A stretch of DNA of 64,000 nt from an uncultured Lentimicrobiaceae bacterium (GCA_964400655.1 CAYNVN010000121.1:2770-66769); one strand, 5' to 3'; positions 1,329 through 61,955 are shown, numbered from the stretch's first letter. The notes: generated by a model not told the origin, from the letters alone. Numbers and translations are program-made.

Positions 1329-1583
1329 TTAGTAACGATTTTCTCTTGGACGGGCTTCGTTAACACGTAGATTTCTACCATTAACTTCTCTGCCTTCCAG
1401 AGCTTCAACAGCCTGACGGCCTTCGTCGTCGTTTGGCATTTCAACAAAACCAAAACCTTTTGAGCGGTTGGTAGCTCTGTCGATAATAATTCTTGCGCTT
1501 GATACTTCGCCAAATTCGCTAAAGATTTGCTCTAAATCGTGGTCATCCATCGAGTAGGCAATGTTTCCAATGTAAATGTTCAT
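1329..1583 (-). CDS. RRM-domain RNA-binding protein (84 aa)
   Basis: RNP-2-like IYIGNI and RNP-1 KGFGFVEM motifs. The length and layout are typical of single-RRM bacterial Rbp proteins. Confidence 0.95.
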   Translation of the reverse strand: MNIYIGNIAYSMDDHDLEQIFSEFGEVSSARIIIDRATNRSKGFGFVEMPNDDEGRQAVEALEGREVNGRNLRVNEARPRENRY

Positions 1584-1789: not shown

Positions 1790-1837
1790 ACAAAATAAAT
1801 TCCTCAAAGTTTTAATATTTATCAAGTTTGAGGAATT
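1790..1837 (-). terminator. Putative terminator at the end of the inositol-lipid operon
   Basis: An 11-bp inverted repeat, AATTCCTCAAA (1798-1808) / TTTGAGGAATT (1827-1837). On the minus strand it is followed by TTTATTTTGT. It lies about 50 nt after the stop at 1889. Confidence 0.6.
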
Positions 1838-1888: not shown

Positions 1889-2818
1889 TTAAATTAGTTT
1901 TATAAAGCGTTGTATTTTATTGTTTACAAACGGGTTTAACGATAGTTTTTCAAAAACAACAATTACAACAAGAGCTACTGTTACTCCCAAACCGATATCT
2001 ACAAGGTAGTGGTGTCCTGAATAAACTGCCGAAAACCAAATACCAAGCATAAAGACCGCAAAAAACCAATTCATAATTTTTAAACCTTTTTTTATGCCAT
2101 AATAAAGTACAATAACCGGATAAGCGGCATGTAATGAGGGTATGGCAGCAAGCACATTGGCATTTTTGTTGTAAATGGATTGAAAAACCGGAATACCGGT
2201 AATGGCATCAAAACGGGCAAGTCCGGCACTGTTTCCAGGAACGCCCAAATGCAAATCAAAACCATAAAGTTTAACATACCACGGCGGTGCTGCAGGATAG
2301 ATATAATAAATAACAAACCCGACAAGATTAACCAAAAGAAAAACCAGCGAGAACTTTGTAAACAGATATTTATCTTTAAAATACAGATAAACGGCAAAGG
2401 CCAGCGGTATGGGCACCCAGTTAATATAAAACAATCCGGCCAGTATATCTAAAAACGGTTTACTATGGATATTAAAATACTCGTTGGGCGTGAGTATATG
2501 GCCGGTTTCGTTAATTCCGAACAGCAATTTTTCCAGTTCATAGGGTTGTTTTATATGCACCTGCGACACCTGGTAATTGGGTATTACCCGCATTGAATCA
2601 TATACAATCCAATAGATGATAAATATTGAAAATGCCAAAATAAACCTGCGTGTTTTTTCGGTAAAATAATATCCCGTAAGCCAAATTAAAACAAGATAAT
2701 AGTATTCGGCTCTTATTCCTCCGGTAAAATAACTCCACAACAAACAGGCAAACACAACAATGGCGTTAAGTGTAATGTTTTTATTTGTAAACCTTATGAA
2801 CTCTGTATTTTCAGCCAT
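1889..2818 (-). CDS. PAP2-superfamily membrane protein, Aur1/inositol-phosphorylceramide-synthase-like
   Basis: Polytopic membrane protein carrying IPSLHAAYP and YSGHHYLVDIGLG. These match the PSxH and HYxxD motifs of the Aur1/sphingomyelin-synthase-like PAP2 branch. It is the last gene of the inositol-lipid operon, and its ATG overlaps the upstream stop (TAATG). Confidence 0.7.
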   Translation of the reverse strand: MAENTEFIRFTNKNITLNAIVVFACLLWSYFTGGIRAEYYYLVLIWLTGYYFTEKTRRFILAFSIFIIYWIVYDSMRVIPNYQVSQVHIKQPYELEKLLFGINETGHILTPNEYFNIHSKPFLDILAGLFYINWVPIPLAFAVYLYFKDKYLFTKFSLVFLLVNLVGFVIYYIYPAAPPWYVKLYGFDLHLGVPGNSAGLARFDAITGIPVFQSIYNKNANVLAAIPSLHAAYPVIVLYYGIKKGLKIMNWFFAVFMLGIWFSAVYSGHHYLVDIGLGVTVALVVIVVFEKLSLNPFVNNKIQRFIKLI

Positions 2819-3354
2819 TACTTAAAATATAATTTTTCGTACACCTTATTATTGGTTTTTATGTCGTTACCAAACAATTCCACATATAAAACTTTTGGCC
2901 AGAAACCCGATTCGTCGGCATAAATATACAGATGATCAAGTTTTGAAAGACTATTGTTAATATTGGCATAAACCACCGCTTTAAATGGTGCTTCCTGACT
3001 AAGCCAAAAGGAGTGTTCTTCATCAGCCACAAGTTTTACCCTGTAATATTTTTCTTTATCTTTTACCTTTTCGCATTTAACCCCGTATGCATACCATTTT
3101 TCGATGGTACGTAATTCCATTTTTTGTCCCTGTTCTTCGTATCGTATCCAGTAAACATTGATGGGGTTCTCTTTGTTCAAATTTCCGTTATCATCAAAAT
3201 TTGCATCGTAAACAATGGTATTTTTGTTATGATTACGCTGGATATAAAAAAGCAATTTATCATTTTTTAACGGCACGGGATAACGGTCGTCATCCACACT
3301 CTTAAACGACATCGTAACAAACAGCAGCAATATTATGGGAGCAACTCTCTTCAT
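2818..3354 (-). CDS. Small secreted protein of unknown function (DUF4833-like, from memory)
   Basis: Signal peptide MKRVAPIILLLFVTMSF. About 178 aa, with no catalytic motif recognised. The DUF4833 assignment is recollection only. Confidence 0.5.
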   Translation of the reverse strand: MKRVAPIILLLFVTMSFKSVDDDRYPVPLKNDKLLFYIQRNHNKNTIVYDANFDDNGNLNKENPINVYWIRYEEQGQKMELRTIEKWYAYGVKCEKVKDKEKYYRVKLVADEEHSFWLSQEAPFKAVVYANINNSLSKLDHLYIYADESGFWPKVLYVELFGNDIKTNNKVYEKLYFK

Positions 3355-3355
3355 A

Positions 3356-4363
3356 TTACAACATGTTTTTATTTTTATACCATGTTAAAGTTTCGGTAAG
3401 CCCTTTTATTAAATCATATTCGGGATAAAAACCAAAATCGTTTACCAGCGGAGTGCTGTCGCACAACCAGTTTTTACAACTTATCTCTTTATATTTTTCG
3501 GTATTTAGCGTAGGCGGCACTTTGGTAATACAGGCAATTTTTTCGGTTAAAAAGGCTACAATTTTAACAATGGTGCGGGGAAAAATAATACGAATGGTTT
3601 TTTTTCTTAAAACTTTTTTAATGATAGTATTAAACTCCGTAGCCGTATAGTAATTAAGGTCGGAAACAAAGTACGACTTTCCGGCAACCGGGGATTCCAG
3701 CGCATCAAAAATCAATCTAACCAAATCTTTAACATAAATAAATGTTAGATGCTGCCGGGTTGTACCAATATAGGTTTCAACACCCTGTTTGATGTTTTTA
3801 TAAACGAGATAAAAATCTTTTTCGCGATATCCGTAAGCGCCCGTAGGTCTGAAGATTAGAAAAGGAAAACCGGACAATGATTTAATATACCGTTCGGCCT
3901 TTAGTTTGCTTTCGCCATACAAGGTAACCGGATGAGGGGTATCGGAATCCGATACCGGTTTTAAGGTTTCTTCGTCTCCCGGGCCATAAGCCGCCAAACT
4001 GCTCATAAAAACAAATTTTCCCGACAGCGAAGCTGTTTCCGTTAAAGCTTCTATCAGGTTTTTGGTGTATTGAAAATTTACTTTGTCAAAATCGCTTTTT
4101 ACACACGATTTTGTAATTCCGGCATTATGAATAACAAAGTCGAACTTTCCGAATGTTTTTTGATGTGTTGTAAACTTCTCAGCCAAAAGGGCTTTATCGG
4201 AAAGTTCCGTTTCGATAAAGTTAATACGGGGATCGGATAAATAGGTTCTGTTGCTGGAACTTCTCACCGCAGCAAAAACACGATAGTTTCGTTTCAAAGC
4301 CTCCTCCACAAGAAAGCTGCCGATAAAACCGCTGGCACCTGTTATTAAAATATTTTTCATCAT
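3356..4363 (-). CDS. NAD(P)-dependent epimerase/dehydratase-family (extended SDR) protein
   Basis: N-terminal Rossmann motif ITGASGFIGS and catalytic YGESK (YxxxK). Confidence 0.85.
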   Translation of the reverse strand: MMKNILITGASGFIGSFLVEEALKRNYRVFAAVRSSSNRTYLSDPRINFIETELSDKALLAEKFTTHQKTFGKFDFVIHNAGITKSCVKSDFDKVNFQYTKNLIEALTETASLSGKFVFMSSLAAYGPGDEETLKPVSDSDTPHPVTLYGESKLKAERYIKSLSGFPFLIFRPTGAYGYREKDFYLVYKNIKQGVETYIGTTRQHLTFIYVKDLVRLIFDALESPVAGKSYFVSDLNYYTATEFNTIIKKVLRKKTIRIIFPRTIVKIVAFLTEKIACITKVPPTLNTEKYKEISCKNWLCDSTPLVNDFGFYPEYDLIKGLTETLTWYKNKNML

Positions 4364-4365
4364 TC

Positions 4366-6915
4366 TTAAAAATCCATTTTAAACCTGGCTCTTATTCCGT
4401 ATTCAGCAACATTAGGATTATCTAAATAGGTAACCCGTTTAACAACATCGACCCTGAAAAATTTAAGAATATTGCCAATACCTGCACTAACTTCAATATA
4501 GGGTTTGTCTTTTAAGGTAAATGTAGTCGGGTTGCCGTAACTATCAGTCGGAAATTTCATTACTCCGGGTGTAACATCGGGGTTGTTTTGGTCGCTTACG
4601 CTGCCGTAAAGTCCTTTAAACGACACAATGGCTCTCCACTTTAACCTTTTAAACAACGGAATTTTATTAAAAATAAAGCCGTTAAAATGATGTTCGATAA
4701 AAAGGCTTGCATACTGATCACTTACAAATTCCAGAAAGTTCATCATATTGTAAGAGCGAATTTGGTACGAATAGGTTTGGTTGGCACGAGGTATTGCAAG
4801 TAACGGGAAGGGTACCTGTCCGAAAACTTTTCCGGCTTCAATTTCCGTATTGGTAAATCCTATTGGTGAAAGATAAAAACGTTTAAAGGCATTAAAAGTA
4901 AGTTTACTATAGGTATAATCTGAATTAAACACCCCTTCAAAACCCTGTGTATAGGATATTTGAAAGATGGGATATTTTGTAATAATGGGAACTCTGAAAT
5001 CCATTCCCTGATAAAACTTTTCGTTGGGTGCAAAACGTAAACGGGTAATAATTTCGCTGGTAACAATCTGGTTAATCGAATAATCATCGTAGTTAAAATA
5101 TAACGTTCCTCCGGGTTCCTGTTTCATATTTTTAAAGATGAGTGTGGTAGAAAACCCGTTTTTCCAATCTTTATAATGTTTAAGTTCAAACATTTCGTAG
5201 TAAAGTATTTTATCTGAAACTCCCCTTTTAAACGAAAGTAAAAAATTATCTTCATTTATAAACTGCATCTCCATACCGGGGAAATTGGTTTCAACCTGAT
5301 ACATGGCAGAAAAATAGTGTTTCGGATTTTCTTTTAACGGTTTTTTATTAAGCGACCATGTGCCTTTTAATGAATATTTAAATCTTTCATCTTTAAACCC
5401 GTACATCAGATAGCCCTCAAGTCTTAATCGTTTACTGAATTTCTCGCTGGTTCGTCCTCCAGCTCTTAAGCGAAATCCTTCCACATCATTAAAACTATAA
5501 AAAGTATTAACCGGTCCAACATCAACTTTTCCGAAATTCCAATAGCCTGCAACCAGCAGCATAACAATATCCATTGTTCGTTTAAATGCCGGCACATGTT
5601 GAACGCTGTCAACCATCGAGTAAATATTTTTTTCTTTATCCGAAAGGTCAACCAACCGGTTTTTACCCCAGAAAGCGGTATCACGTTCATTATATCCGGG
5701 TTCGCGAATTATATTTTCAACACCTCTGTAAACGGTATCGGGTCGTTTTTTATTAAACAGATAATTATCGTAATAAACCGTTTTTCTTCCGAACATTCCG
5801 ATACCTTTTTTACCAAGATTAAAATCAACCACAAGATTATCTCTGGTAAGCATCCAGCATTGGTTATTGATGTAAGAATACTCCTGAACGATTTTAAGGT
5901 CGTTAACAAAATTCAAATTAATGTCATCGGTTATTCTCATATCGGCTTTAATAACCGCATATCTTTTATCATTGGTAATGTATAAGTTACCAACAAAGGC
6001 AAAGTCCTGCCTGTTTCGAGGCTGAAAAGCAAGATTAATACAGCTATAGCCGTTAACATCAACCGTATCTAGAATAAAAAATTTGTAAATAACCGGAGAA
6101 ATAGTTGACAAAGGGCTGACAAACGGATTGGTTAACAGCGTAATATTATTATCGTAAATATCGATATCCTGATACATATTGTCAATCATAAAGCTGATTC
6201 CCTCATTATCAAGATAGTCGTGAAAGCCGATCATTTTAGTTCCGGAAACGTATTCTTTTTCACTTTTCGGGTTTTTACGATAATACTTTTTTGAGACTGT
6301 TTCTTTTAAGAATACCGGAAGGTACGGTTTGCCGTTTATTTTGGAAGTATCTACATAATTAAAAACAAATTGTAGTTTTTTAAATACCTTTTTACTTTTA
6401 AATTTTTCGGTAATATTATTCAGGTCAAACTCAACCTTTTCATACTTATTGTATTCGTAATAATCCAGACTTTCTTTACGGTTTAGGTTTTTGTTTTTAA
6501 TAACTTTTTTAATAAGGTCAACCGCAGGGTTTCCTTTGTTTCTATATCGTTTCTTTTTAGTTGATATAACCACTTCATTTAAATCGATACTTTTTGATTT
6601 CAGTTCAAAATTTACAACCTGATTTTTTTCCGGTATTATTTTTTTAGTCTGACTATTGTAACCCAAAAATGATGCCTGCAGCGAATCGGATGCCCATAAT
6701 GTTTCAATACTGTATTTTCCGTTATAGTCGGTTGTAGTGCCTATATTTTTTCCCACAAAAACAATATTTACAAAAGGTAAAGGCTCTTTGGTTCCTGCAT
6801 CAATCACCGTACCTCTTACACGGGTCATTTTTTGGGCACGGCTCTCTTTTGCCGGTATAACCGCCAATAAAGAAGCAATTAAAACGATATATATTATTTG
6901 TTTAATCCTCACCAC
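4366..6915 (-). CDS. Outer-membrane protein with an N-terminal carboxypeptidase-regulatory-like domain and a large DUF5686-like beta-rich region
   Basis: GTG start and signal peptide ...LIASLLAVIPAKESRAQ. VRGTVIDAGTKEPLPFVNIVFVGKNIGTTTDYNGKYSI is a typical CarboxypepD_reg fold signature. The C-terminal end, ...GIRARFKMDF, looks like a beta-barrel terminus. The DUF5686 name is from memory. Confidence 0.65.
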   Translation of the reverse strand: MVRIKQIIYIVLIASLLAVIPAKESRAQKMTRVRGTVIDAGTKEPLPFVNIVFVGKNIGTTTDYNGKYSIETLWASDSLQASFLGYNSQTKKIIPEKNQVVNFELKSKSIDLNEVVISTKKKRYRNKGNPAVDLIKKVIKNKNLNRKESLDYYEYNKYEKVEFDLNNITEKFKSKKVFKKLQFVFNYVDTSKINGKPYLPVFLKETVSKKYYRKNPKSEKEYVSGTKMIGFHDYLDNEGISFMIDNMYQDIDIYDNNITLLTNPFVSPLSTISPVIYKFFILDTVDVNGYSCINLAFQPRNRQDFAFVGNLYITNDKRYAVIKADMRITDDINLNFVNDLKIVQEYSYINNQCWMLTRDNLVVDFNLGKKGIGMFGRKTVYYDNYLFNKKRPDTVYRGVENIIREPGYNERDTAFWGKNRLVDLSDKEKNIYSMVDSVQHVPAFKRTMDIVMLLVAGYWNFGKVDVGPVNTFYSFNDVEGFRLRAGGRTSEKFSKRLRLEGYLMYGFKDERFKYSLKGTWSLNKKPLKENPKHYFSAMYQVETNFPGMEMQFINEDNFLLSFKRGVSDKILYYEMFELKHYKDWKNGFSTTLIFKNMKQEPGGTLYFNYDDYSINQIVTSEIITRLRFAPNEKFYQGMDFRVPIITKYPIFQISYTQGFEGVFNSDYTYSKLTFNAFKRFYLSPIGFTNTEIEAGKVFGQVPFPLLAIPRANQTYSYQIRSYNMMNFLEFVSDQYASLFIEHHFNGFIFNKIPLFKRLKWRAIVSFKGLYGSVSDQNNPDVTPGVMKFPTDSYGNPTTFTLKDKPYIEVSAGIGNILKFFRVDVVKRVTYLDNPNVAEYGIRARFKMDF

Positions 6916-6921
6916 TAATCC

Positions 6922-7317
6922 TTATTTAAAAACAAAATATTTATGTGTTAAAAAGTTAAACCCGATACCCACAATAATTGCAACTATTATTTTAGAGATA
7001 ATATACCGGCAGTTAAAAAATTCAACCAGCAAATAAAGGCCTGCGGTATTTAAAAAAATACTGACAGACCAAACCAATATGTATTTAAATGACTGGGCGG
7101 AAACCTTCCCGCCGGTTTTCATAAAAGTCCAGTTTCGTTCCATAACAAACGCGGTTATTCCTCCTGAAACCGCACCGATAACGGCCGAAAGGAGATACCA
7201 GATTTCCAGGGCCTCCGTAAAAAGAATAAATACGGCAAAATCAACCGATGTAGCAACAATAGCCACAACATTGTATCTGAAAAATGAAGTTAGTGTTTTC
7301 GGTTTTGTATTCACCAC
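6922..7317 (-). CDS. GtrA-family small membrane protein
   Basis: 131 aa with four predicted TM segments. FFRYNVVAIVATSVDFAVF and the C-terminal FNFLTHKYFVFK are typical of GtrA-like proteins. The GTG start directly follows the pgpA stop. Confidence 0.75.
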   Translation of the reverse strand: MVNTKPKTLTSFFRYNVVAIVATSVDFAVFILFTEALEIWYLLSAVIGAVSGGITAFVMERNWTFMKTGGKVSAQSFKYILVWSVSIFLNTAGLYLLVEFFNCRYIISKIIVAIIVGIGFNFLTHKYFVFK

Positions 7318-7794
7318 TTATAAAATTTCAAGATACATTACCAATTGCAAAACAGCAGCTGCATAAACTCCCGCCAACACATCATCCAGCATAACACTCC
7401 AGTCGGATTTAAGGTTATCGAGTTTTTTAATGCCAAAGGGTTTTACAATATCAAATATTCTAAACAAAATAAGGGCGTAGAGGTAGTACTGCCATTTAAG
7501 CGGAATGGCAACGGCCGCAATGCCCACTCCCACAATTTCATCAATAACAATTTTAGGCGAATCGTGTTCCCATATCCGGTGAACCTTTTTAATGGCATAA
7601 ACACCCCACAGCAACAAAATAATAACAGCAAAAAGATTAAGAACCGAAACACCTGTTTTTCCTACTCCCAAATGGTTCAGCAAAAGGTTTAACCCGTAAA
7701 AAAAGGTTATTCCAAGTACCGAACCTGCCGTACCCGGTGCAACAGGTGCATATCCTGTTCCTAATCCCGATGCTATTATTTTTGCTGTTTTCAT
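7318..7794 (-). CDS. pgpA: PgpA-type phosphatidylglycerophosphatase A family protein (probable phosphatidylinositol-phosphate phosphatase in this context)
   Basis: GLGTGYAPVAPGTAGSVLG, DEIVGV and RIFDIVKPFGIKKLD motifs of PgpA. Its start abuts the MIPS stop (7794/7795). Confidence 0.85.
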   Translation of the reverse strand: MKTAKIIASGLGTGYAPVAPGTAGSVLGITFFYGLNLLLNHLGVGKTGVSVLNLFAVIILLLWGVYAIKKVHRIWEHDSPKIVIDEIVGVGIAAVAIPLKWQYYLYALILFRIFDIVKPFGIKKLDNLKSDWSVMLDDVLAGVYAAAVLQLVMYLEIL

Positions 7795-9114
7795 TTACTC
7801 CTCTTCGTAATAATCAAGACCAAGGTGGTTAATCAGGGTTTCTCCCATCATATAGCGCAAAGTATTTTCAAATTTTATTTTTTGAAGGAAAATATCATGG
7901 ATGGGTTCCAGCCCTTTTTTGGTTTGCGGCGATTTAAAATAAAACGACAACCACTCCTGAATGCCTTTATATCCTGCTCGTTGAGCAAGGTCCATAAATA
8001 AAACCAAATCCAAAACTACCGGAGCGGCAAGAATGGAATCTTTACATAAGAAATTAACTTTGATTTGCATTTTATAATTGAGCCAGCCGAAAATATCGAT
8101 GTTATCCCAGCTCTCCTTATCGTCTCCCTTGGGAGGATAGTAATTAATCCTTACTTTATGATACATATCTTTATAAAGTTCAGGATACTTATCGGGCTCC
8201 AAAATACTGTCTAAAACACTTAATTTGGAAACCTCTTTGGTTTTAAACGAATCAACATCGTCAAGCACCTCGCCATCTCTGTTGCCCAGAATATTTGTTG
8301 AGAACCAGCCGTCAATACCAATTAAACGCGATTTTAACCCCGGTCCCAAAATGGTTTTCATCAGCGTTTGGCCTGTTTTAAAGTCCTTACCAGCAATGGG
8401 AATATTAAGTTTATTAGCCATATCAATTAAAGCGGGAATATCAACTGTAAGGTTAGGTGCACCGTTAACAAACGGAACCCCGCTTTTTAATGCGGCATAA
8501 GCATAAATCATGCTGGGTGAAATGGAAGGATGATTTTCTTTTAAACCTTTTTCAAAATTTTCTATTGTTTGATGAACTTCGGTTTCCCGGGTATAAACTT
8601 CGGTGGAAGCACACCAAATCATAACCATCCTGCTACAATTATTGGCCGATTTAAAATATTCGATATCCTCCATTACTTCCAGGGCCAATTCCATTTTGGT
8701 ATTTTCTATTTTCACATTCTCGCCATGTATGTTTTTAACATATGCCGAATCGAAAACTGCCGGCATCGGTTCAATGGCACTCAGCTCATCTTTTACAGAG
8801 TCAAGCAAATCTTTATCTAAAACTCCTGCGTTTAAAGCAGCCTCATAAGCATTTTCTTTAAAAATATCCCAACCTCCGAAAACCAGATTCTCAACAGGTG
8901 CAAGAGGAACAAAGTCGTTTATTGCAGGATTTCTGTTTTCGGTCCGTTTTCCAAGTCTGATTTTTCCCATCTGCGAAATAGACCCAACAGGTTTGCCAAT
9001 TCCTTTTTTGGTGGCAAAAACTCCTGCCATAAAAGTGGTGGATACCGCACCGATACCCGGAATAAGAACACCCAGCTTACCGTCGGGGGCTTTAATGCTG
9101 TTTTGTGATTTCAT
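7795..9114 (-). CDS. ino1: myo-inositol-1-phosphate synthase
   Basis: 439 aa with an N-terminal NAD-binding GVLIPGIGAVSTTFMAG. The central SPSMIYAYAALKSGVPFVNGAPN block is characteristic of the MIPS family. Confidence 0.9.
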   Translation of the reverse strand: MKSQNSIKAPDGKLGVLIPGIGAVSTTFMAGVFATKKGIGKPVGSISQMGKIRLGKRTENRNPAINDFVPLAPVENLVFGGWDIFKENAYEAALNAGVLDKDLLDSVKDELSAIEPMPAVFDSAYVKNIHGENVKIENTKMELALEVMEDIEYFKSANNCSRMVMIWCASTEVYTRETEVHQTIENFEKGLKENHPSISPSMIYAYAALKSGVPFVNGAPNLTVDIPALIDMANKLNIPIAGKDFKTGQTLMKTILGPGLKSRLIGIDGWFSTNILGNRDGEVLDDVDSFKTKEVSKLSVLDSILEPDKYPELYKDMYHKVRINYYPPKGDDKESWDNIDIFGWLNYKMQIKVNFLCKDSILAAPVVLDLVLFMDLAQRAGYKGIQEWLSFYFKSPQTKKGLEPIHDIFLQKIKFENTLRYMMGETLINHLGLDYYEEE

Positions 9115-9151
9115 TTTTATTAAATTTAATAATTACTATATATCTTAACCT

Positions 9152-9838
9152 CTACATTTTATCGTAACAATGATGCAATCGCTGAAAAGCGGTATAGTTT
9201 GTTAATACAGCCATAATAAATATGGGAAATGTAAAAACCGATATGTTTTCAAAAAGCGGAAAAGGCAAAAAATCAACCGAAAACTTAAAATTGCCAAAAA
9301 CCATCGACACAATACCATACAATATTGCGGTAATACCAATGGTAAGCACTCTTTCAGGCCGCTGCATCATACCTACTTTACACTCCACACCCAATCCTTC
9401 AGCCCGGGCTCTTACATAACTTACCATAATGGAACCTATCATGGCAATAAAAGCGAATACGGAACTTAAAAGATAATCGTAACTAACAAGGTAATAAGCA
9501 ATACCAAAAAACATAACCATTTCGCTGTACCGGTCTAATACCGAATCGTATAAAGCACCGAATTTGGTTGTTTTTCCGGTTCGGCGGGCAAGCTGACCGT
9601 CAAGCATATCAAATAGTCCTGCAAATAAAGTAACAGCCCCAAACCACATTATATAATGGTAATTTCCTCTCTCACCCGCTTCGGCACCGTAAACAAGAAC
9701 GGCAGCCGAAATCATAGTAATAAATAAACCAATTGTTGTAATCCCGTTGGGTGTTACACCGGTTTTAATTAACACACCGATAAACGGATCAAGTAATTTA
9801 TATGCCCTTATTTTGATTTTTTCCCAGTTAAATTCCAT
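9152..9838 (-). CDS. CDP-alcohol phosphatidyltransferase (probable phosphatidylinositol-phosphate synthase)
   Basis: Complete DGx2ARx8Gx3Dx3D motif in DMLDGQLARRTGKTTKFGALYDSVLD. Polytopic membrane protein and first gene of the operon. Confidence 0.9.
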   Translation of the reverse strand: MEFNWEKIKIRAYKLLDPFIGVLIKTGVTPNGITTIGLFITMISAAVLVYGAEAGERGNYHYIMWFGAVTLFAGLFDMLDGQLARRTGKTTKFGALYDSVLDRYSEMVMFFGIAYYLVSYDYLLSSVFAFIAMIGSIMVSYVRARAEGLGVECKVGMMQRPERVLTIGITAILYGIVSMVFGNFKFSVDFLPFPLFENISVFTFPIFIMAVLTNYTAFQRLHHCYDKM

Positions 9839-9859: not shown

Positions 9860-9879
9860 GTTAGTTTATATTTACTAAC
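9860..9879. promoter_or_regulatory. Operator-like palindrome, copy 3 (GTTAGTTTATATTTACTAAC), in the 5' leader of the inositol-lipid operon
   Basis: Shares the GTTAGT...ACTAAC arms with the other two copies. Lies 21 nt upstream of the ATG at 9838. Confidence 0.55.
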
Positions 9880-9960: not shown

Positions 9961-9984
9961 CAAAGTTAGTTAATATAAACTAAC
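9961..9984. promoter_or_regulatory. Operator-like palindrome, copy 2 (GTTAGTTAATATAAACTAAC, 9965-9984), overlapping a minus-strand TAACTTTG -7 box (9961-9968)
   Basis: The reverse complement of 9961-9968 is TAACTTTG, which fits the Bacteroidota TAnnTTTG -7 consensus. It is oriented toward the operon starting at 9838. Confidence 0.6.
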
Positions 9985-10286: not shown

Positions 10287-10310
10287 GTTAGTTAATATTA
10301 ACTAACTTTG
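10287..10310. promoter_or_regulatory. Operator palindrome, copy 1 (perfect 20-mer GTTAGTTAATATTAACTAAC, 10287-10306), overlapping a plus-strand TAACTTTG -7 box (10303-10310)
   Basis: Perfect self-complementary 20-mer. The -7 box lies about 40 nt upstream of the TetR ATG (10351). Confidence 0.65.
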
Positions 10311-10350: not shown

Positions 10351-10929
10351 ATGCAAACAGAAAGACAAACACAAATAATGGAGTCGGCACTTGAGCTTAT
10401 TGCCGAAAAAGGTATTCAGGGATTAACCATTAAAAATTTATCGAAAAAAATTGGCATTTCGGAACCGGCCATATATCGCCACTTTGAAAACAAAAGCAGC
10501 ATCTTACTTACCATTCTGGATAACTTTAAACAGATGGCTGCCATGTTATCGGCCATAATACCCACTGTTGGAGAAACCGCATTTGATAAAATTTCATTTA
10601 TCTTTTCAAAGATTACCCAACTTTTTATTGAGTCGCCATCTTATGTATCGGTAATTTTTTCGGAAGAGATTTTTAAAAACGATTTACAACTAAAAAATAA
10701 AATTACCGAAGTTCTTGACCAAAACGAGCAAACCATCGAGAACATCATTATTACCGGCCAGGAAAACGGCGATATACGAACAGACATCAGCAGCAAAAAT
10801 TTAGCACTTATTGTTATGGGTTCGTTACGATTTCTTGTTAAACAATGGGATATCAAGGAACGCCGGAAAAACCTTAAACAAGAAGGCGATCAACTGTTAA
10901 ACAGTTTAAAACTCATTATTAAAAAATAA
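10351..10929 (+). CDS. TetR/AcrR-family transcriptional regulator
   Basis: N-terminal HTH: IMESALELIAEKGIQGLTIKNLSKKIGISEPAIYRHFENK. 192 aa. Confidence 0.9.
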   Translation: MQTERQTQIMESALELIAEKGIQGLTIKNLSKKIGISEPAIYRHFENKSSILLTILDNFKQMAAMLSAIIPTVGETAFDKISFIFSKITQLFIESPSYVSVIFSEEIFKNDLQLKNKITEVLDQNEQTIENIIITGQENGDIRTDISSKNLALIVMGSLRFLVKQWDIKERRKNLKQEGDQLLNSLKLIIKK

Positions 10930-11101: not shown

Positions 11102-11917
11102 ATGAAAATAAAAATCAATATATTGTTATTATTCGGCTTACTGCTTTTCACTTCTTGCAACGAAGTATTTGACTACTCACCTTATGTTATTGATTTTGAC
11201 GACGAAAACAGAGATGTTAACAAAACCAATATAGCCAAATTATTATTAAAAAAAGCACCTGACACCATACACATTGCATTTACGGGAGACTCGCACAGGT
11301 TTTATGACGAACTGGAAGATTTTGTTGACAAAGTAAACGAAGTAAACCAAACAAGCCCTTTTGATTTTGTAATTCATGTTGGAGATATTGCCGACTTCGG
11401 TTTACCAAAACAGTATTTGTGGGGCAACTCCTCTTTACTAAACCTTGACATACCCTATTTTGTTCTTTTGGGAAATCACGATATGGTTGGAAATGGCGGA
11501 CAGGCTTACACCGAAATGTTTGGCGACTACAACTTCAGCTTTATTTACGGCAAAATAAAGTTTGTTTTTTTAAACACAAACAGCCGCGAATTTAAATTCA
11601 ACGGTAAAGTACCCGATTTAAACTGGCTTGATAATGAGCTAAAACCCGCCGATGATTTCAGTTATGCCGTAGTTATTTTCCATGTGCCTCCCACGGATGC
11701 TGATTTTGACCCTGATTTAACAGAAGCTTTCCATCAAACGCTGGCAAAGTATAACAATGTGCTGTTTGGAGTGCACGGCCATTTACACCATTTCAATGTT
11801 TACAAACCTTTTCCCGACAGCATTACCTATGTTAATGTTTACGGTGTAGAACACCGGAAATTCACAGTCATTGACATTAGCGGCCATCACTTTAATATTA
11901 AGGAGTATGCGTTTTAA
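11102..11917 (+). CDS. Calcineurin-like metallophosphoesterase lipoprotein
   Basis: Lipobox LLFTSC. Phosphoesterase motif series GDSH, GDIADFG, GNHD, FHVPP and GHLHH. Confidence 0.85.
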   Translation: MKIKINILLLFGLLLFTSCNEVFDYSPYVIDFDDENRDVNKTNIAKLLLKKAPDTIHIAFTGDSHRFYDELEDFVDKVNEVNQTSPFDFVIHVGDIADFGLPKQYLWGNSSLLNLDIPYFVLLGNHDMVGNGGQAYTEMFGDYNFSFIYGKIKFVFLNTNSREFKFNGKVPDLNWLDNELKPADDFSYAVVIFHVPPTDADFDPDLTEAFHQTLAKYNNVLFGVHGHLHHFNVYKPFPDSITYVNVYGVEHRKFTVIDISGHHFNIKEYAF

Positions 11918-12518
11918 AATACTAATTATATTAATTTTTATGGCGGGAACCCCATCAGTGGCGCAACACGCTGAAGCTTCTCCAAAAGCCGATACTTCGG
12001 TTTGGGTTAAGTTTATCCCCGATTATGTTAAACTGCAATATGCCGGAGGAATAGGCTTTTTATCGGCAGGAGTTGGCTACACCTTTTTCAAACAAAACCT
12101 CGATATCTCACTGTTTTACGGTTATGTTCCAAAGTGGTTTACCACCGACGACCTGCACAGCATCAGTTTGCAGTTTACGGCAAAACTGTTCAGAATTAAA
12201 GCATCCGATAACATTGAAATTCTTCCTTTAAACATAGGATGGTATTTACATCATACTTTTGGTAACGAATATTGGGTAAAACTACCTAACAACTATCCTA
12301 AAGGTTACTATTGGTGGTCGCCCGGAAGAAATGCAGGAGTATTTTTGGGTGGTGAAATAAAAACAAAACTGCTGGCCAATAAATCGCCGGCATCGGGGCT
12401 GGCTTTTTATGTAAGGGCAGGTACCCGGGGGCTTTACTTAGCCAGTAAAGCGGGAAACAAATCGTTACCGATTACCGACATTATAGAGCTTGGATTTGGC
12501 GTTGCCTTGTACCGATAA
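11907..12518 (+). CDS. Secreted hypothetical protein, probably a small outer-membrane beta-barrel
   Basis: I chose the ATG at 11907 because it gives signal peptide MRFKILIILIFMAGTPSVAQ. Alternating aromatic/Gly-rich strands and a C-terminal ...GFGVALYR. Overlaps the upstream stop by 11 nt. Confidence 0.5.
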   Translation: MRFKILIILIFMAGTPSVAQHAEASPKADTSVWVKFIPDYVKLQYAGGIGFLSAGVGYTFFKQNLDISLFYGYVPKWFTTDDLHSISLQFTAKLFRIKASDNIEILPLNIGWYLHHTFGNEYWVKLPNNYPKGYYWWSPGRNAGVFLGGEIKTKLLANKSPASGLAFYVRAGTRGLYLASKAGNKSLPITDIIELGFGVALYR

Positions 12519-12528
12519 TATTTTAAAA

Positions 12529-13422
12529 ATGAAAAACATACTTATAATACTTCTTACGGGGATTTTGATTTTGGCAAAATGTCAGGCTCAAAACAAAAAG
12601 GTTCCCGAAATACGCTTAACTACCATAGCACAGGTTAACCAGGGAAACAGTTACATAACGGCACCCATAGATATTGGCAATATAGAGCCATTATGGTTTG
12701 AAGCAAATATTATTCCCGGATTTCATATACGTCAAAATAAAGATTCGAGATTAATGGGCGTTTTAACACCCCAAATCATCATCAGAATGTATCAGGAAAA
12801 GTCGGCTCCGGTACGTACCCCCAGTTATATCCCACAAATTACGGTATATTATAAACTCAAATCAAAAACCGAAGCAAACAGTCTTAGTGTTTTCGGTAAA
12901 ATAGCACACCACTCAAACGGCCAGGACGGAGAATATTTGTTGGAAAACGGAGAGGTTAATCTAAAAACCGGCGACTTTTCAACCAATTACATTGAGATGG
13001 GCATTATTGTAACCAACTTCAACAAAAAACTTAATGCGGTACAGTTTTTCGGAACCTCTTTTGAACTTCATCCCGAAAGCCTGACAAATAATACCATGAT
13101 CGGCTCATACGGGCTGTATCGCTGGAACTCCATCTTTTCAATATTTAAGTTGCCTGACGGTGCCGGCAACAAACAAAAAAAACGGGCTAAAATATCGCTG
13201 AAAGGCGAAACAACCTGGATGTTCGGCAAACTTTACGACTGGAACTGGTACTCATTGAACCGGTTAAATTTAAGTTTTACATTTTACTATCATCCGCGTT
13301 TTTTAGAAGAGATAGGCCTGTTTGTAAATATTTACCACGGAATGGATTATTACAACATCTATTTCAACCATCAGATCAGCGTTATTCGTTTTGGAATAAT
13401 GACTGAAATATTGCAGTTCTAA
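12529..13422 (+). CDS. Outer-membrane phospholipase A (OMPLA/PldA)-like protein
   Basis: Start chosen at MKNILIILLTGILILAKCQAQ. IAHHSNGQDG matches the HxSNG catalytic motif of OMPLA, and a downstream DFSTNY is a possible catalytic Asn region. Size is about right for PldA. Confidence 0.6.
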   Translation: MKNILIILLTGILILAKCQAQNKKVPEIRLTTIAQVNQGNSYITAPIDIGNIEPLWFEANIIPGFHIRQNKDSRLMGVLTPQIIIRMYQEKSAPVRTPSYIPQITVYYKLKSKTEANSLSVFGKIAHHSNGQDGEYLLENGEVNLKTGDFSTNYIEMGIIVTNFNKKLNAVQFFGTSFELHPESLTNNTMIGSYGLYRWNSIFSIFKLPDGAGNKQKKRAKISLKGETTWMFGKLYDWNWYSLNRLNLSFTFYYHPRFLEEIGLFVNIYHGMDYYNIYFNHQISVIRFGIMTEILQF

Positions 13423-56979: not shown

Positions 56980-57927
56980 GTGAAAAGATCGAAACCATAT
57001 TTAATAGGATTTACTTTTATTTTGGCCATCGTAATATTTGTTTGGGGGTTCAACTTTCTTAAAGGACGCGACCTGTTTAAAAAACAGGAATTTTTGTTTG
57101 CCCGATACAAAATGGTAAACGGCCTGGTTGCAGCCAAGCCGGTTTATATAAACGGATTACAGGTGGGACAGGTAAGCAGGCTCTATTTTGCCCCCGATAT
57201 GTCGGGCGACATTATCGTGGAAATGGTTATTCAAAGCAAATTCCCCATCCCCAAAAACAGTGTTGCACATATTTTTAGTGCCGACCTGATGGGCTCCAAA
57301 TCCATTGAATTACATTTGGGCGACTCAAAAGAGATTGCCCAAAGCGGCGATACTTTATTAACCAGCGTAGAAGGCTCCATAATGGAGTCGGTCAACAAAC
57401 AGGTGGCACCGCTTAAAGCCAAAGCCGAAGTATTGATGAGCTCGGTTGATACCCTGATTGCAGCATTTAACACCGTATTAAACAAAAACACAACCGAAAA
57501 CCTGAAAGCAAGCATCAAAGATATTACCACTACTTTCAGGAACCTTTCAAACACTACCAGCAACATTGACACCCTTGTGGAGGTAGAATCAAACCGACTG
57601 GCCAATATTCTTGCACATGTTGATTCGCTTACCGGTACGCTAAGTGATAACCGCGAAGACCTAAGTAAAATTATTATCAACTTCAGAAGCATTAGCGATT
57701 CGCTGGCAAAAACCGATTTTTTAAGCATTATCCAAAAAGCCGACTCGTCCATAAACAGTTTAAACCAAATTCTTGCTAAAATCAACGAAGGACAAGGAAC
57801 GGCCGGCATGCTGATGAATAACGATTCGCTATACCGCGAACTGGATAAATCAGCCGAAGAATTAAATAAGTTATTAAAAGATATTAGGGAAAACCCTAAA
57901 CGGTATGTAAAATTTTCGCTGTTTTAA
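56980..57927 (+). CDS. MlaD/MCE-family protein
   Basis: GTG start, N-terminal TM helix, MCE domain ...VNGLVAAKPVYINGLQVGQVSRLYF..., and a long helical C-terminus. Confidence 0.85.
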   Translation: MKRSKPYLIGFTFILAIVIFVWGFNFLKGRDLFKKQEFLFARYKMVNGLVAAKPVYINGLQVGQVSRLYFAPDMSGDIIVEMVIQSKFPIPKNSVAHIFSADLMGSKSIELHLGDSKEIAQSGDTLLTSVEGSIMESVNKQVAPLKAKAEVLMSSVDTLIAAFNTVLNKNTTENLKASIKDITTTFRNLSNTTSNIDTLVEVESNRLANILAHVDSLTGTLSDNREDLSKIIINFRSISDSLAKTDFLSIIQKADSSINSLNQILAKINEGQGTAGMLMNNDSLYRELDKSAEELNKLLKDIRENPKRYVKFSLF

Positions 57928-57956: not shown

Positions 57957-59081
57957 CTAAAATTTGTACTGATAGATTCTGTACTTTTTGTACATCTCGG
58001 CATTAATATTTTTTAAAGCGCGGTTCATCATGATATTATCTTCCAATATCCAGCTTGCTTCTCCCGTATAGTAGCCTCTTTTGGTTCCGTTATGAAATGT
58101 TTTTGCATACATACAGGCATCGATACCGGTTTTACGATAATTCTCCAAAATACCAAGTGTTAATACTCTTACACTTTTTACTTTTTTCTTAAAATTGATA
58201 AGTTTCAGGAAATTAAACGGAAAAAGTTTACCGTTTCTTATCTTTATAAATATTTCGTTAATATTCGGTATTGTGGCCGAAAAAGCCACGGGTTTTCCGT
58301 TATCCTCAACCATAAATACCAAATCGGGGGTAGTAATCATTTTTAACTCTTTTACCAAAGCATCAAACTCTTCCACGGTCATGGGAATAAATCCCCAATT
58401 ATCTTTCCATGCTTCATTGTATATGTACCGAATTTTAGGAATTTCCTCCTTCATATTATTAAAATCAACCTGCCGGATGATGATCCCCTGCGATTTCAGC
58501 CGTTCCTCAATTTTGGCACTCAAACTCAACATCCGCTCCGGAATCTCCTTATGACGCAGATACCAGGCAAACAAATCCATTCGTTTTTCCAGTCCGTAAT
58601 CAAGGAAAAGGCTATCGTAATACGCTTTGTTGTGGGTCATCATAACAAACGGTGGTGTATCAAAACCTTCTACCAACGTACCACATGGATCGTTGGTTGA
58701 CGGATTCATGGGGCCGTACATACCATCCACCCCTTTATCTTTTAGCCAGGCAACGGCCGTATCAAATAACGCTTTGGCAACCTCTTTATCTTCAACAGAT
58801 TCAAAAAATCCGAAAAAACCATAATTCTCTTTCCAGTGGTCAACATAGGCCTGATTGGTAATGGCCGCTATCCTACCAACAACCTCCCCGTTACCATTAG
58901 TTGCAATAAAATACTCTGCTTCACCATGCTTAAAAAAAGGATTCTTCTTTTTATCCAGTGTCTCTTTGGTCATAAGCCTGAGTTCAGGAACATAATTCTT
59001 ATCATCTTTATAATGATTGTAAGGAAAATCAATAAATTTCTTTATCCCCTTTTTATCATTAACCTTTTGTACTGTTATCAT
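57957..59081 (-). CDS. GNAT-like N-acyltransferase-family protein of unknown specificity (374 aa)
   Basis: The N-terminus MITVQKVNDKKGIKKFIDFPYNHYKDDKNYVPEL resembles a widespread ~370-aa family annotated as GNAT N-acetyltransferase (recollection). Divergent from spt. Confidence 0.45.
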   Translation of the reverse strand: MITVQKVNDKKGIKKFIDFPYNHYKDDKNYVPELRLMTKETLDKKKNPFFKHGEAEYFIATNGNGEVVGRIAAITNQAYVDHWKENYGFFGFFESVEDKEVAKALFDTAVAWLKDKGVDGMYGPMNPSTNDPCGTLVEGFDTPPFVMMTHNKAYYDSLFLDYGLEKRMDLFAWYLRHKEIPERMLSLSAKIEERLKSQGIIIRQVDFNNMKEEIPKIRYIYNEAWKDNWGFIPMTVEEFDALVKELKMITTPDLVFMVEDNGKPVAFSATIPNINEIFIKIRNGKLFPFNFLKLINFKKKVKSVRVLTLGILENYRKTGIDACMYAKTFHNGTKRGYYTGEASWILEDNIMMNRALKNINAEMYKKYRIYQYKF

Positions 59082-59221: not shown

Positions 59222-60409
59222 ATGACCGAACTACAAAAGCGAGCCGCTGCCTATACCGAGCCACAAAAAGTTAAAGAGGCGGGAATTTATCCCTATTTCA
59301 GGGTACTTCAGTCGGGACAGGATAAAGAGGTGGTTATCGACGGAAAAAAGGTGTTGATGTTTGGTTCAAATAACTATCTGGGACTAACCAGTCATCCTCG
59401 CATTAAAGAAGCGGCCATTGCGGCCATAAAAAAATACGGATCGGGAACTGCAGGCTCCCGTTTTCTGAACGGAACACTTGATATCCATCTGGAACTGGAA
59501 GAAAAACTCGCAAAATTTGTGGGTAAAGACGAAGCCATTACCTATTCAACGGGGTTTCAAACCAACCTCGGTGTAATTTCAGGAATTATCGGACGAAACG
59601 ACTGCATCATCATTGATGAACAGGATCATGCTTCACTTATTGACGGCACTCGTTTGTCGTTTGGAAAAGTATATAAATACAAGCACAACGACATGGAGTC
59701 GCTGGAAAAGGTACTGATTCGTCAAAACAACTATGCTCTTAAGCTGATTATTCTGGATGGCATCTTCAGCATGGAAGGCGACATTGCCCGTTTAGATGAG
59801 GTGGTAAGACTTGCCGAAAAATATAATGCTTCTATTTTGGTTGATGATGCACATGGCTTGGGTGTTTTGGGCGAAAGAGGAAAAGGCACCGCTAATCACT
59901 TCGGTGTAACCGATAAAGTAGAGATGATTACCGGAACTTTTAGCAAATCGCTTGCTACGGTGGGGGGATTTGTTGCCGGTTCAAAGGAGATAATCAACGT
60001 ATTGCGCCATGTTTCACGAAGTTTTATTTTTAGTGCCAGTTTGCCACCGGCTTCAACGGCATCGGTAATTGCCGCACTGGAACTAATTGAAGAACAGCCC
60101 GAAATAGTTGACAACCTTTGGAAAAACGCCAACCTTTCCATTAAACTATTTAACCATTACGGCATTGACATCGGTAATTCAGAAACCCCAATCATTCCGG
60201 TTTATATCCGCGATAACGAAAAAACGTTTTACATAACAAAACTGTTACTGGAAGAGGGTATTTTTGTCAATCCGGTTATTTCGCCGGCAGTACCACCCGA
60301 GCACTCGCTGCTTCGTTTCTCGCTGATGGCAACCCACTCAACCGAAGAAATTGAATATACCATAGAAAAAATTTACAAAACGGGTAAAAAAATCGGTTTG
60401 TTTGATTAG
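59222..60409 (+). CDS. spt: alpha-oxoamine synthase family PLP enzyme, most likely serine palmitoyltransferase
   Basis: GIYPYFR, VLMFGSNNYLGLT, KKYGSGTAGSRFLNGTLDIHLELE, YKYKHNDMESLEKVL, DGIFSMEGDIARL and the GTFSKSLATVGGF Lys motif. It closely recalls Bacteroides SPT rather than BioF/Kbl. The family call is certain; the subfamily is inferred. Confidence 0.75.
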   Translation: MTELQKRAAAYTEPQKVKEAGIYPYFRVLQSGQDKEVVIDGKKVLMFGSNNYLGLTSHPRIKEAAIAAIKKYGSGTAGSRFLNGTLDIHLELEEKLAKFVGKDEAITYSTGFQTNLGVISGIIGRNDCIIIDEQDHASLIDGTRLSFGKVYKYKHNDMESLEKVLIRQNNYALKLIILDGIFSMEGDIARLDEVVRLAEKYNASILVDDAHGLGVLGERGKGTANHFGVTDKVEMITGTFSKSLATVGGFVAGSKEIINVLRHVSRSFIFSASLPPASTASVIAALELIEEQPEIVDNLWKNANLSIKLFNHYGIDIGNSETPIIPVYIRDNEKTFYITKLLLEEGIFVNPVISPAVPPEHSLLRFSLMATHSTEEIEYTIEKIYKTGKKIGLFD

Positions 60410-60491: not shown

Positions 60492-61955
60492 TTAATACCG
60501 ATAACTAAGCGTTAAAACAGCCTGATAATCTTTTTCGTTGATTTTTGAGGGTGCAGTATAAAAGTTTTCGGAGGTATAAAGATAATAATCGCTTTTTTTA
60601 TTCCCGTACACAAAAGCAAAATCAACACTAAAACCGTTATAACTATAACCAATCCCTCCGGTAAAATACTGTTTTTGGCCGTCGTTTAAATTGTTTTGAT
60701 ACGGACTTGCATAAAGTGCATAACCGCCTCTGAAGCTAAAAACACCTGCCCGTATTTCAACACCGCCTCTAAAATTGCTTGTGCCCGTGTAATAATTTTG
60801 GATATCGGCATTGGTTCCCGAGGCATAGTCAACCCCGTTGGCTTTAAATTTGGCTGTCGAATAATCAACATACTCATATTCAAAAGTAAAAAATCCGTAT
60901 TTCTTAAAAACAAGGGCAACATCACCGATAAAACGCATCGGAGTGTGCAGTTTATAATCAAACAAACCGTCGGGAGAGGAATGGCTGAAACTGTTCCATT
61001 CCAAATCGGAGTTAAAAATGGTGTACCACCTGTCGGTTAACGAATACCATGTGGGAGAGTGATAGGCCCCTCCAATGCGCAGCCAGTCGGTTGGCCGGTA
61101 GATCAAACCTACTTTAACATTGAATCCTATTCCCGTAGTCTCCAGATATTCATACATCGACCATGAAGAAAAATAGGGAATAGTATCCATTACATCCGAT
61201 TCGCTGTAAGTTGTTTGTCTGAAATACCTTGTGTAAGGCATGCCAAGGGTTAATCCGAAATAGAGTTTATCATCAAAATTAGCTCCAAAGGAAAAGTCGT
61301 ACTCATTGGTTGAGCCTCTGCTTGCCACAATTTCCTTTTGAAGAGTACCGGCAAAAGGAACCGGTGTATAATACAAATCCGTATATCCCGGAATGGTATC
61401 AAGAAGCACCGTCCACCATGCAGGCGTTAAATCGTAAGAGTACCATCCGTTTTTATCATTTTCAATATCGCCGTAATACGTACCGTCGGCTTGCTCCAAA
61501 AAGACATCAAGTTTGGAGTTATCACCGTTTTTACCGATAATTGTCCGGTTGGTATTGAAATTATTCAGCCTGTTAAAACCAAAGGCAAATTGCATATATT
61601 TTAATCCTGCAGCATTATGTCCCGGTCTTGCCGTTGAAACAACGCCAAAGTTGCTCAGGTCAAAAACGGTTCTTGTATCTTCGGCACTACTTCCGTAATA
61701 AAGGGCCGATGTGTTTCGTGTAAAAACTTCGGGTGTAATGCTGTATTCGTCTTTGCGATAGAGGCCCAGTCCGGCCGGATTGGTTGTTAGTGTGGAAAGG
61801 TCGGACCCCAAAGCACCGAAAGCACTTCCCACTGCCATATTTCTTGCCGTTCCCTGATAGTATTGTTGTGAAATCCTTAGTGCATCGCTGGCATATTGTG
61901 AATATGCAGACGTTGCTAACACAATTATTACAGATATGAGGATAACTCGTTTCAT
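60492..61955 (-). CDS. FadL/OmpP1-like outer-membrane beta-barrel protein
   Basis: Signal peptide and N-terminal ...GSAFGALGSDLSTLTTNPAGLG, typical of the FadL/TodX family. The C-terminus ...AVLTLSYRY is a beta-barrel end. Confidence 0.55.
   Translation of the reverse strand: MKRVILISVIIVLATSAYSQYASDALRISQQYYQGTARNMAVGSAFGALGSDLSTLTTNPAGLGLYRKDEYSITPEVFTRNTSALYYGSSAEDTRTVFDLSNFGVVSTARPGHNAAGLKYMQFAFGFNRLNNFNTNRTIIGKNGDNSKLDVFLEQADGTYYGDIENDKNGWYSYDLTPAWWTVLLDTIPGYTDLYYTPVPFAGTLQKEIVASRGSTNEYDFSFGANFDDKLYFGLTLGMPYTRYFRQTTYSESDVMDTIPYFSSWSMYEYLETTGIGFNVKVGLIYRPTDWLRIGGAYHSPTWYSLTDRWYTIFNSDLEWNSFSHSSPDGLFDYKLHTPMRFIGDVALVFKKYGFFTFEYEYVDYSTAKFKANGVDYASGTNADIQNYYTGTSNFRGGVEIRAGVFSFRGGYALYASPYQNNLNDGQKQYFTGGIGYSYNGFSVDFAFVYGNKKSDYYLYTSENFYTAPSKINEKDYQAVLTLSYRY

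Follow-up and report, generated by a model that had tools for sequence, protein, structure and literature searches.

A probable inositol phospholipid and inositol phosphoceramide operon of the Bacteroides thetaiotaomicron type in an uncultured Lentimicrobiaceae bacterium

A 64,000-nucleotide stretch of DNA from an uncultured Lentimicrobiaceae bacterium (GCA_964400655.1 CAYNVN010000121.1:2770-66769; the whole stretch is called the window, and positions are counted from its first letter) carries eight head-to-tail open reading frames (ORFs) on its minus strand, listed from 9838 down to 1889. This block is quite probably a real and intact operon for inositol phospholipids and inositol phosphoceramide (IPC) of the type known from Bacteroides thetaiotaomicron (BT). 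The gene for myo-inositol-1-phosphate synthase (MIPS) stands beside those for a phosphatidylinositol phosphate (PIP) synthase, a PgpA-type phosphatase and an Aur1-like phosphoinositol dihydroceramide (PI-DHC) synthase in an 8-kb block, the combination that defines a BT-like cluster. The enzymology is already known, and the activities are inferred from work on B. thetaiotaomicron and yeast; the architecture is a variant found widely among environmental Bacteroidota, with no description in the literature searched. As read from the sequence, this variant would consist of a CerR-like extended short-chain dehydrogenase/reductase (SDR), a DUF4833 protein and a DUF5686 protein inside the unit, together with TetR operator-like sites. 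The eight genes, in order of transcription, are as follows.

9152-9838, minus strand: PIP synthase candidate, BT_1523 type, 228 aa (Pfam CDP-OH_P_transf, 68 bits)
7795-9114, minus strand: MIPS, BT_1526 type, 439 aa (Pfam NAD_binding_5, 343.6 bits; Inos-1-P_synth, 107.9 bits)
7318-7794, minus strand: PgpA-family protein, predicted PIP phosphatase, BT_1525 type, 158 aa (Pfam PgpA, 133.7 bits)
6922-7317, minus strand: small membrane protein of the GtrA family, BT_1524 type, 131 aa, GTG start (Pfam GtrA_DPMS_TM, 72.7 bits)
4366-6915, minus strand: secreted CarboxypepD_reg and DUF5686 protein, BT_1527 type by description, 849 aa, GTG start (DUF5686, 213.8 bits; CarbopepD_reg_2, 76 bits)
3356-4363, minus strand: extended SDR of the NAD-dependent epimerase/3beta-HSD type, 335 aa (Pfam Epimerase, 117.7 bits; 3Beta_HSD, 56.9 bits)
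2818-3354, minus strand: secreted all-beta DUF4833 protein, 178 aa, directly 5' of the PI-DHC synthase gene (Pfam DUF4833, 133 bits)
1889-2818, minus strand: Aur1-like PAP2_3 protein, predicted PI-DHC (IPC) synthase, BT_1522 type, 309 aa (PAP2_3, 82 bits)

Core enzymes and the predicted lipid route

The predicted pathway is fixed by the published genetics of BT_1522-BT_1526. In B. thetaiotaomicron, BT_1526 is a MIPS, BT_1523 a PIP synthase, BT_1525 a PgpA-type PIP phosphatase, BT_1524 a membrane protein with a GtrA motif and BT_1522 the PI-DHC/IPC synthase (PMC9246714; PMC8791184). By this route, MIPS would convert glucose-6-phosphate to inositol phosphate, which the BT_1523-type transferase would join to CDP-diacylglycerol to form PIP. 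The PgpA-type phosphatase, whose predicted function as a PIP phosphatase is taken from Heaver et al., would dephosphorylate PIP to phosphatidylinositol (PI), and the Aur1-like PAP2 enzyme would transfer phosphoinositol from PI to dihydroceramide, yielding IPC. Dihydroceramide would come from an unlinked serine palmitoyltransferase (spt), a neighbouring GNAT-type candidate ceramide synthase and the operon SDR. GtrA (inner membrane), DUF4833 (secreted) and DUF5686 (an Omp85-like outer-membrane barrel) would be accessory envelope components and not enzymes of the known route.

An initial annotation of the window had named four families for the core proteins, and all four (CDP-OH_P_transf, Inos-1-P_synth, PgpA and PAP2_3) were matched in Pfam; its proposal that the block follows the enzyme logic of BT_1522-BT_1526 is borne out by best matches in NCBIfam that lie below the equivalog cut-offs. 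For the PIP synthase, the best model is PIPSynBT1523 (NF052561, 311 bits, E 4.7e-93), covered over its full length, and the next best are archaetidylinositol-phosphate synthase and PIPSynth, of the archaeal and actinobacterial types. The full Dx2DGx2ARx8Gx3Dx3D motif is present at residues 77-102 (DMLDGQLARRTGKTTKFGALYDSVLD). The PAP2 protein has PhinosDhcerSyn as its sole NCBIfam match (NF052609, 329 bits, E 3.2e-98, profile positions 9-289 of 305), and it scores 82 bits on PAP2_3, for which the cut-off is 27, and 25 bits on generic PAP2, under the cut-off of that model. When all PDB sequences were searched by phmmer, only yeast AUR1 was returned (9vj3, 9ivc; E 1.6e-17, 260 residues), so that grouping with generic lipid phosphatases was not found. 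The PAAPPWY, PSLH (at 227) and HHYLVD (at 269) motifs align with AUR1. The last gene had been called Aur1/IPC-synthase-like, and this assignment stands, as do the motifs that had been read in it and in the CDP-alcohol transferase.

Yeast AUR1 shares PAAPPWY, PSLH and HHYxVD with the window protein. AUR1 is longer (401 aa against 309 aa), no Kei1 partner gene accompanies the bacterial gene, and the bacterial substrate would be dihydroceramide, by analogy with BT_1522. The active site of Aur1 faces the lumen; by the same analogy, that of the PAP2 enzyme probably faces the periplasm.

Operon layout, relatives and control

The eight genes are packed as tightly as first described, with gaps of 37, 0, 0, 6, 2, 1 and -1 nt in order of transcription. 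Direct reading confirmed two junctions that had been singled out, namely TAATG at 2816-2820, a stop/start overlap between the DUF4833 and PAP2 genes, and the pgpA TAA, which abuts the GTG start of the GtrA gene at 7317. Six nt separate the TAA of the GtrA gene from the GTG start of the DUF5686 gene at 6915, and three junctions of the operon abut or overlap. The first three genes had been identified correctly as those for a CDP-alcohol transferase, MIPS and PgpA, but their order had not, since PIP synthase comes first and MIPS second. Contigs of three metagenome runs, one each from a hydrothermal vent, an epibiont and an unlabelled sample (one of them possibly the source sample of the window), cover the block and cross the junction between DUF5686 and SDR, and the gene arrangement is therefore not a misassembly. 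A single transcript with translational coupling of the eight genes is inferred.

Relatives were collected by scanning one genome per GTDB species with aligned DUF4833 homologues, and the loci (L numbers below) were searched by tblastn with the eight window proteins. Flanking sequence was sufficient in 51 loci for cluster content and in 74 for the direct neighbours of DUF4833; because the loci are the best 80 of 148 matches, fractions of these informative loci favour orthologues, among them the 35 of 51 that hold all six core genes. The loci span metagenome-assembled genomes of Bacteroidales, Lentimicrobiaceae, Prolixibacteraceae and Flavobacteriales, as well as Saprospiraceae and cultured Arcicella and Flectobacillus. 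With PIPS standing for PIP synthase and IPCS for IPC synthase, the order PIPS-MIPS-PgpA-GtrA-DUF5686-(spt-GNAT)-SDR-DUF4833-IPCS was found in about 40 loci, and Arcicella and Flectobacillus have MIPS-PgpA-GtrA-DUF5686-PIPS-DUF4833-IPCS, without the SDR. L001, the closest relative among the loci (66-83% protein identity), has no spt-GNAT pair in its cluster, like the window. The long single block, first presented as a departure from the described model, is not special to this organism and recurs in dozens of environmental Bacteroidota.

The features that bound and may control the unit are as follows.

10351-10929, plus strand: TetR-family regulator gene (Pfam TetR_N, E 6.5e-13; YsiA-like TetR_C_4)
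10287-10306, unstranded: palindrome copy 1, a perfect 20 bp, operator-like (GTTAGTTAATATTAACTAAC)
9965-9984, minus strand: palindrome copy 2, fused to the -7 box (9968-9961) as a composite at 9961-9984
9860-9879, unstranded: palindrome copy 3, 21 nt 5' of the PIP synthase ATG
1798-1837, minus strand: candidate terminator of the unit, formed by a hairpin (11-bp stem) and a U-rich run after it

A TAACTTTG -7 box had been reported upstream of the block, and it was found again as the reverse complement of 9961-9968, 123 nt 5' of the first ATG; the 123-nt leader had no match in Rfam. The 20-bp palindrome (GTTAGTnnATAnnAACTAAC) occurs at three sites, all in the spacer, and has no other match in the 64 kb; chance would give 0.01 matches in the window, and six are seen (three sites on both strands). 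The copies at 9965-9984 and 10287-10306 each abut TTTG, so that each makes a TAACTTTG -7 box, the second of these being the plus-strand box of the TetR gene at 10303-10310. From their positions, one palindrome-linked box would serve the operon and the other the divergent TetR gene. Operator-like sites thus overlap the -7 boxes of both divergent units, as in a TetR-operated promoter pair. Taken with the divergent TetR gene, these three palindromes suggest repressor control, and the TetR protein is probably the repressor of both the operon and its own gene. Transcription would start from the TAACTTTG -7 box, and the TetR protein would repress it through the three 20-bp palindromes. The same layout is seen in L001, where the divergent TetR gene is 81% identical to that of the window and three operator-like sites lie at matching relative places, including the composite of palindrome and TTTG. 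TetR genes are found directly 5' of the cluster in L037, L048, L053, L046 and L058, and a TetR gene adjoins the cluster in at least seven loci.

Several points weigh against reading the block as one intact BT-type unit. The scores of the PIP synthase (311 bits) and the PAP2 protein (329 bits) fall under the equivalog cut-offs of 350 (NF052561) and 480 (NF052609); the PIP synthase is, by its sequence, a candidate for a diverged orthologue and not a certified equivalog. The MIPS gene was found in none of the RNA runs searched. The hairpin at 1798-1837, which had been proposed as the downstream boundary, is real but modest as a terminator: its 11-bp stem has 3 G-C pairs and an 18-nt loop and is followed by UAUUUUG, its 111-nt context folds at -18.4 kcal/mol (z = -1.76), and it was not among the sites listed by a consensus terminator scan. 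In B. thetaiotaomicron, BT_1525 is expressed more strongly than BT_1522 and BT_1523, and BioCyc divides the region into two predicted operons. It could accordingly be proposed that the block comprises several transcription units with promoters inside coding sequence, the tight spacing reflecting genome compaction only, and this is considered unlikely. An internal start does have a candidate. Between 1700 and 10350, the minus strand has only two TAnnTTTG words, the -7 box at 9961-9968 and one inside the operon, and the latter (TAGTTTTG at 8011-8018, within MIPS and 217 nt before pgpA) could be a promoter ahead of pgpA; however, this is one -7-like word in 8 kb, where 5.3 would be expected from base composition. 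Terminator-like sites are also no commoner than in shuffles, the largest intergenic gap is 37 nt with three junctions abutting or overlapping, and the gene order is kept across orders of Bacteroidota. The consensus scan for sigma-70 promoters and terminators did no better than shuffles, as expected for Bacteroidota. Altogether, the depletion of internal TAnnTTTG words and the layout of palindromes and TetR gene support one main TetR-controlled promoter, and there is a good probability that the whole is explained as a single transcription unit of the B. thetaiotaomicron type, devoted to inositol-containing membrane lipids.

Around the hairpin, summed contig depth at 1796-1842 of the window rises 10- to 40-fold in the metagenome runs X2 and X3. 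Many metagenome contigs end there, and one loose end runs on into the operator-like GTTAGTGAATATTAACT. The hairpin is single-copy within the 64-kb window, and a repeated element was therefore rejected as the source of the raised depth in the two runs; the peak may mark a strain-level rearrangement point or a sequence common to other members of the community. Further downstream, a stand-alone gene for an 84-aa RRM-domain protein (1329-1583, minus strand) ends in a strong terminator with a 13-bp stem (1282-1310). A weak Rfam match at 1242-1323 (28 bits, gathering score 100) was considered as a small RNA and dismissed as a chance match to the terminator of the RRM gene.

On the other side, the plus-strand genes 3' of the TetR gene (11102-13422) encode a calcineurin-like phosphoesterase (Metallophos), a 215-aa ORF without a Pfam match and a 310-aa protein with a weak match to phospholipase A1 (PLA1). 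Homologues of these genes lie a few kb from the inositol cluster in L007, L009, L016, L019, L037, L049 and L053, and the three may be a lipid-turnover module that shares the regulator of the operon. In L001, a sulfotransferase-domain gene that is not present in the window (L001:2468-3352) comes first behind the TetR-controlled promoter, before the PIP synthase gene, and could give rise to a sulfated lipid in that relative.

The SDR and the ceramide genes

Two further genes of the window bear on the supply of dihydroceramide.

59222-60409, plus strand: serine palmitoyltransferase (spt), sphingoid base supply, about 50 kb from the operon (SerpalmtaseCFB, 635.5 bits; cut-off 640)
57957-59081, minus strand: 374-aa GNAT-like protein, candidate bacterial ceramide synthase, divergent from spt (weak Pfam Acetyltransf_1)

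The identity of spt had been proposed in the initial annotation and is upheld by its SerpalmtaseCFB score, which lies close to the cut-off. The pair is flanked by genes for an MlaD/MCE-family protein (56980-57927, plus strand) and a 487-aa outer-membrane protein (60492-61955, minus strand) with weak FadL/PorV-like matches, both of lipid-transport type.

The operon SDR is most likely the ceramide reductase CerR, which would reduce 3-oxo-dihydroceramide. This assignment is based on synteny: the SDR is probably CerR because it accompanies spt and the GNAT gene as a triad in relatives. In 23 of the 51 informative loci, spt and the gene for a GNAT protein of the 374-aa type lie between DUF5686 and the SDR, the cluster-embedded alpha-oxoamine synthase scoring 581 bits on the Bacteroidota serine palmitoyltransferase model. 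In L053 and L079, spt, GNAT and SDR stand together elsewhere, as a block that precedes the inositol genes, and the GNAT of the L079 triad is 47% identical to that of the window. The resulting supercluster of ten genes, with spt, GNAT and SDR joined to the inositol genes, was seen in L013, L022, L036 and about 20 other loci (e.g. L022:6599-8919). Such a clustered triad runs against the published account, which has the three ceramide genes of Bacteroidota unclustered (PMC11334938). The pair of spt and GNAT is in the cluster neither in the window nor in L001, and the window SDR stays in the operon. An assembly error was considered for the absence of the pair and rejected; contigs from three runs span the junction and L001 is arranged alike.

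A ceramide route through Spt, bCerS and CerR is reported for Caulobacter crescentus by Stankeviciute et al. (2022). The same three gene types form a contiguous triad inside the clusters of relatives, whereas in the window the SDR lies in the operon with spt and the GNAT gene about 50 kb away, so that the likeness is one of gene type and context. By sequence, the protein is a generic extended SDR. Its GASGFIG (residue 9, GxxGxxG) and YGESK (residue 149, YxxxK) motifs and its Pfam matches do not discriminate for CerR, because they are common to all extended SDRs. No diagnostic match was found in NCBIfam, and the PDB, when searched with the SDR by itself and with a profile of 20 sequences, yielded generic epimerases and dehydratases only. 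Its best matches are sugar-nucleotide epimerases, and the window GNAT has only 28% identity, over its full length, to the GNAT embedded in the clusters of relatives; both facts count against the assignment.

The SDR might instead act as an epimerase, dehydratase or dehydrogenase on a sugar or on the inositol of the head group, and its product might enter an inositol lipid, glycosylated or modified in some other way, that is handled by GtrA. This role, which is rather improbable, agrees with best matches to UDP-glucose 4-epimerases, the hopanoid-associated sugar epimerase HpnA and dTDP-glucose dehydratases, and with the usual tie of GtrA proteins to lipid-linked glycans; however, Pfam finds no glycosyltransferase or nucleotidyltransferase in the cluster, and the SDR also matches types that reduce lipid 3-oxo groups (3Beta_HSD, OleD). 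The position of the SDR, after spt and GNAT in 23 of 51 informative loci and beside them elsewhere in L053 and L079, likewise speaks against it, for these three gene types make up the bacterial Spt-bCerS-CerR route. CerR itself is an NDUFA9-like extended SDR (PMC11087976).

Published clusters and the envelope proteins

The B. thetaiotaomicron cluster BT_1522-BT_1526 has the same five gene families and the same predicted PIP-dependent route as the window, with a CarboxypepD_reg-domain protein alongside. The gene order of the window is another one, however, starting with PIP synthase and ending with the PI-DHC synthase. Its unit also contains DUF5686 and two inserted genes, those for an extended SDR and DUF4833; palindromic operator-like sites and a divergent TetR gene accompany it, and no BT_1521-type flippase-like gene is seen in the eight-gene block. 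The organisms also differ, B. thetaiotaomicron being a gut commensal and the window organism an uncultured, free-living vent or epibiont bacterium of the Bacteroidales. Homologues of BT_1521 ('flippase-like') and BT_1527 ('carboxypeptidase-regulatory-like domain protein') were reported to adjoin both cluster types, and neither DUF4833 nor an epimerase is mentioned in that paper and its supplements (Heaver et al., PMC9246714). Four genes had initially been counted as additions to the described model. This holds for the SDR and DUF4833 but not for GtrA, which corresponds to BT_1524, or DUF5686, which fits the description of BT_1527; only part of the four is new, because GtrA and a BT_1527-type protein were already published.

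The GtrA protein has about four hydrophobic segments. In B. thetaiotaomicron, deletion of BT_1524 leaves less IPC and more PI, which fits a GtrA step that comes after PI is formed and before the PAP2 enzyme acts. The DUF5686 protein, found in 46 of 51 informative loci, has a signal peptide and was modelled with AlphaFold2 (AF2) at moderate confidence (pLDDT 77, pTM 0.65) as an N-terminal domain like CarboxypepD_reg and the SusC NTE, a mixed helix/strand region and a C-terminal barrel. Foldseek gave 119 PDB matches at E<=1e-3, and among the best 50 of these all were Sam50, TamA, BamA, CdiB or Toc75 except one SusC N-terminal domain, matched at the N-terminus. In the predicted model, the C-terminal half can be superposed on Omp85 barrels of 16 strands (Foldseek E 3.5e-8 to 1e-5, probability 1.0), and the protein is accordingly predicted to be an outer-membrane Omp85-like barrel. 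A proteome table of extracellular and outer-membrane vesicles (EV/OMV) of Tannerella forsythia assigns a DUF5686 protein to the outer membrane. Compared with Omp85 proteins (TamA, BamA, Sam50, TpsB), the modelled C-terminal barrel is alike, but POTRA domains are absent, the N-terminal domains found by Pfam being only of CarboxypepD_reg type; similarity to Omp85 is not detectable by Pfam in its sequence, and it is not filed as a member of that family.

DUF4833 was modelled with AF2 (pLDDT 88) as a signal peptide and an all-beta domain, for which Foldseek found no PDB match at E<=1e-3 (best E 0.18, TM score at most 0.27). The family counts about 2,000 representatives at 50% identity, and a literature search returned no mention of it. 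In 54 of 74 informative loci, no more than 250 nt separate DUF4833 from the PI-DHC synthase gene 3' of it, and in 39 of 74 the SDR gene is directly 5' of DUF4833. One protein of 441 aa (P0319) joins a PIP synthase, 56% identical to the window enzyme over its whole length, through a transmembrane linker to DUF4833. In P0289 and P0292, which are N-terminally truncated, a C-terminal PIP synthase fragment is fused to DUF4833 likewise; all three are protein representatives without a locus, and a frameshift or gene-calling artefact is possible. Outside inositol clusters, DUF4833 is found beside CarboxypepD_reg-Plug-barrel proteins resembling TonB-dependent receptors, or beside a DUF5686 protein. In two Prolixibacteraceae loci (L056:9890-12915 and L054:9980-11170), a gene for a LysE-family translocator follows DUF4833, and in L056 it is followed in turn by a gene for a 585-aa OlsF-like bifunctional acyltransferase; judged from these neighbours, DUF4833 of L056 would belong with another membrane-lipid pathway.

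An envelope or trafficking role is plausible for DUF4833 and DUF5686. It is more tentatively suggested, as a possibility on the doubtful side, that GtrA, DUF4833 and DUF5686 together form a dedicated envelope route in which inositol lipids or ceramide are flipped to the periplasmic leaflet, cross the periplasm and are inserted in the outer membrane. That DUF5686, DUF4833 and the SDR are mere passengers, present by chance or for unrelated envelope functions, is very improbable: DUF4833 does occur away from inositol genes in L042, L052, L055 and L056 (with TonB-dependent-receptor-like barrels, or with LysE and OlsF-like genes), but the genes stay adjacent in at least four orders, in the neighbour fractions given above for DUF4833 and DUF5686, a natural PIP synthase-DUF4833 fusion exists, and Heaver et al. 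place the BT_1527 homologue beside both BT-like and alternative inositol clusters.

The window's own enzymology is ordinary. In Bacteroidota, inositol lipids and sphingolipids are important to envelope biology and to the interaction with hosts, and the published model comprises five genes of gut Bacteroides and is silent on how the lipids get to the outer membrane. The head-group genes of free-living Bacteroidota stand with one for a probable ceramide reductase and, in many relatives, with the whole triad of spt, GNAT and SDR. The arrangement of TetR gene and palindromes provides a simple and testable regulatory hypothesis. DUF4833 and DUF5686 are near-constant and unstudied companions of the pathway, DUF4833 being even fused to PIP synthase, and both are concrete candidates for a role in lipid export; the dedicated envelope route, if true, would supply the transport step that Bacteroidota need for their inositol lipids and sphingolipids.

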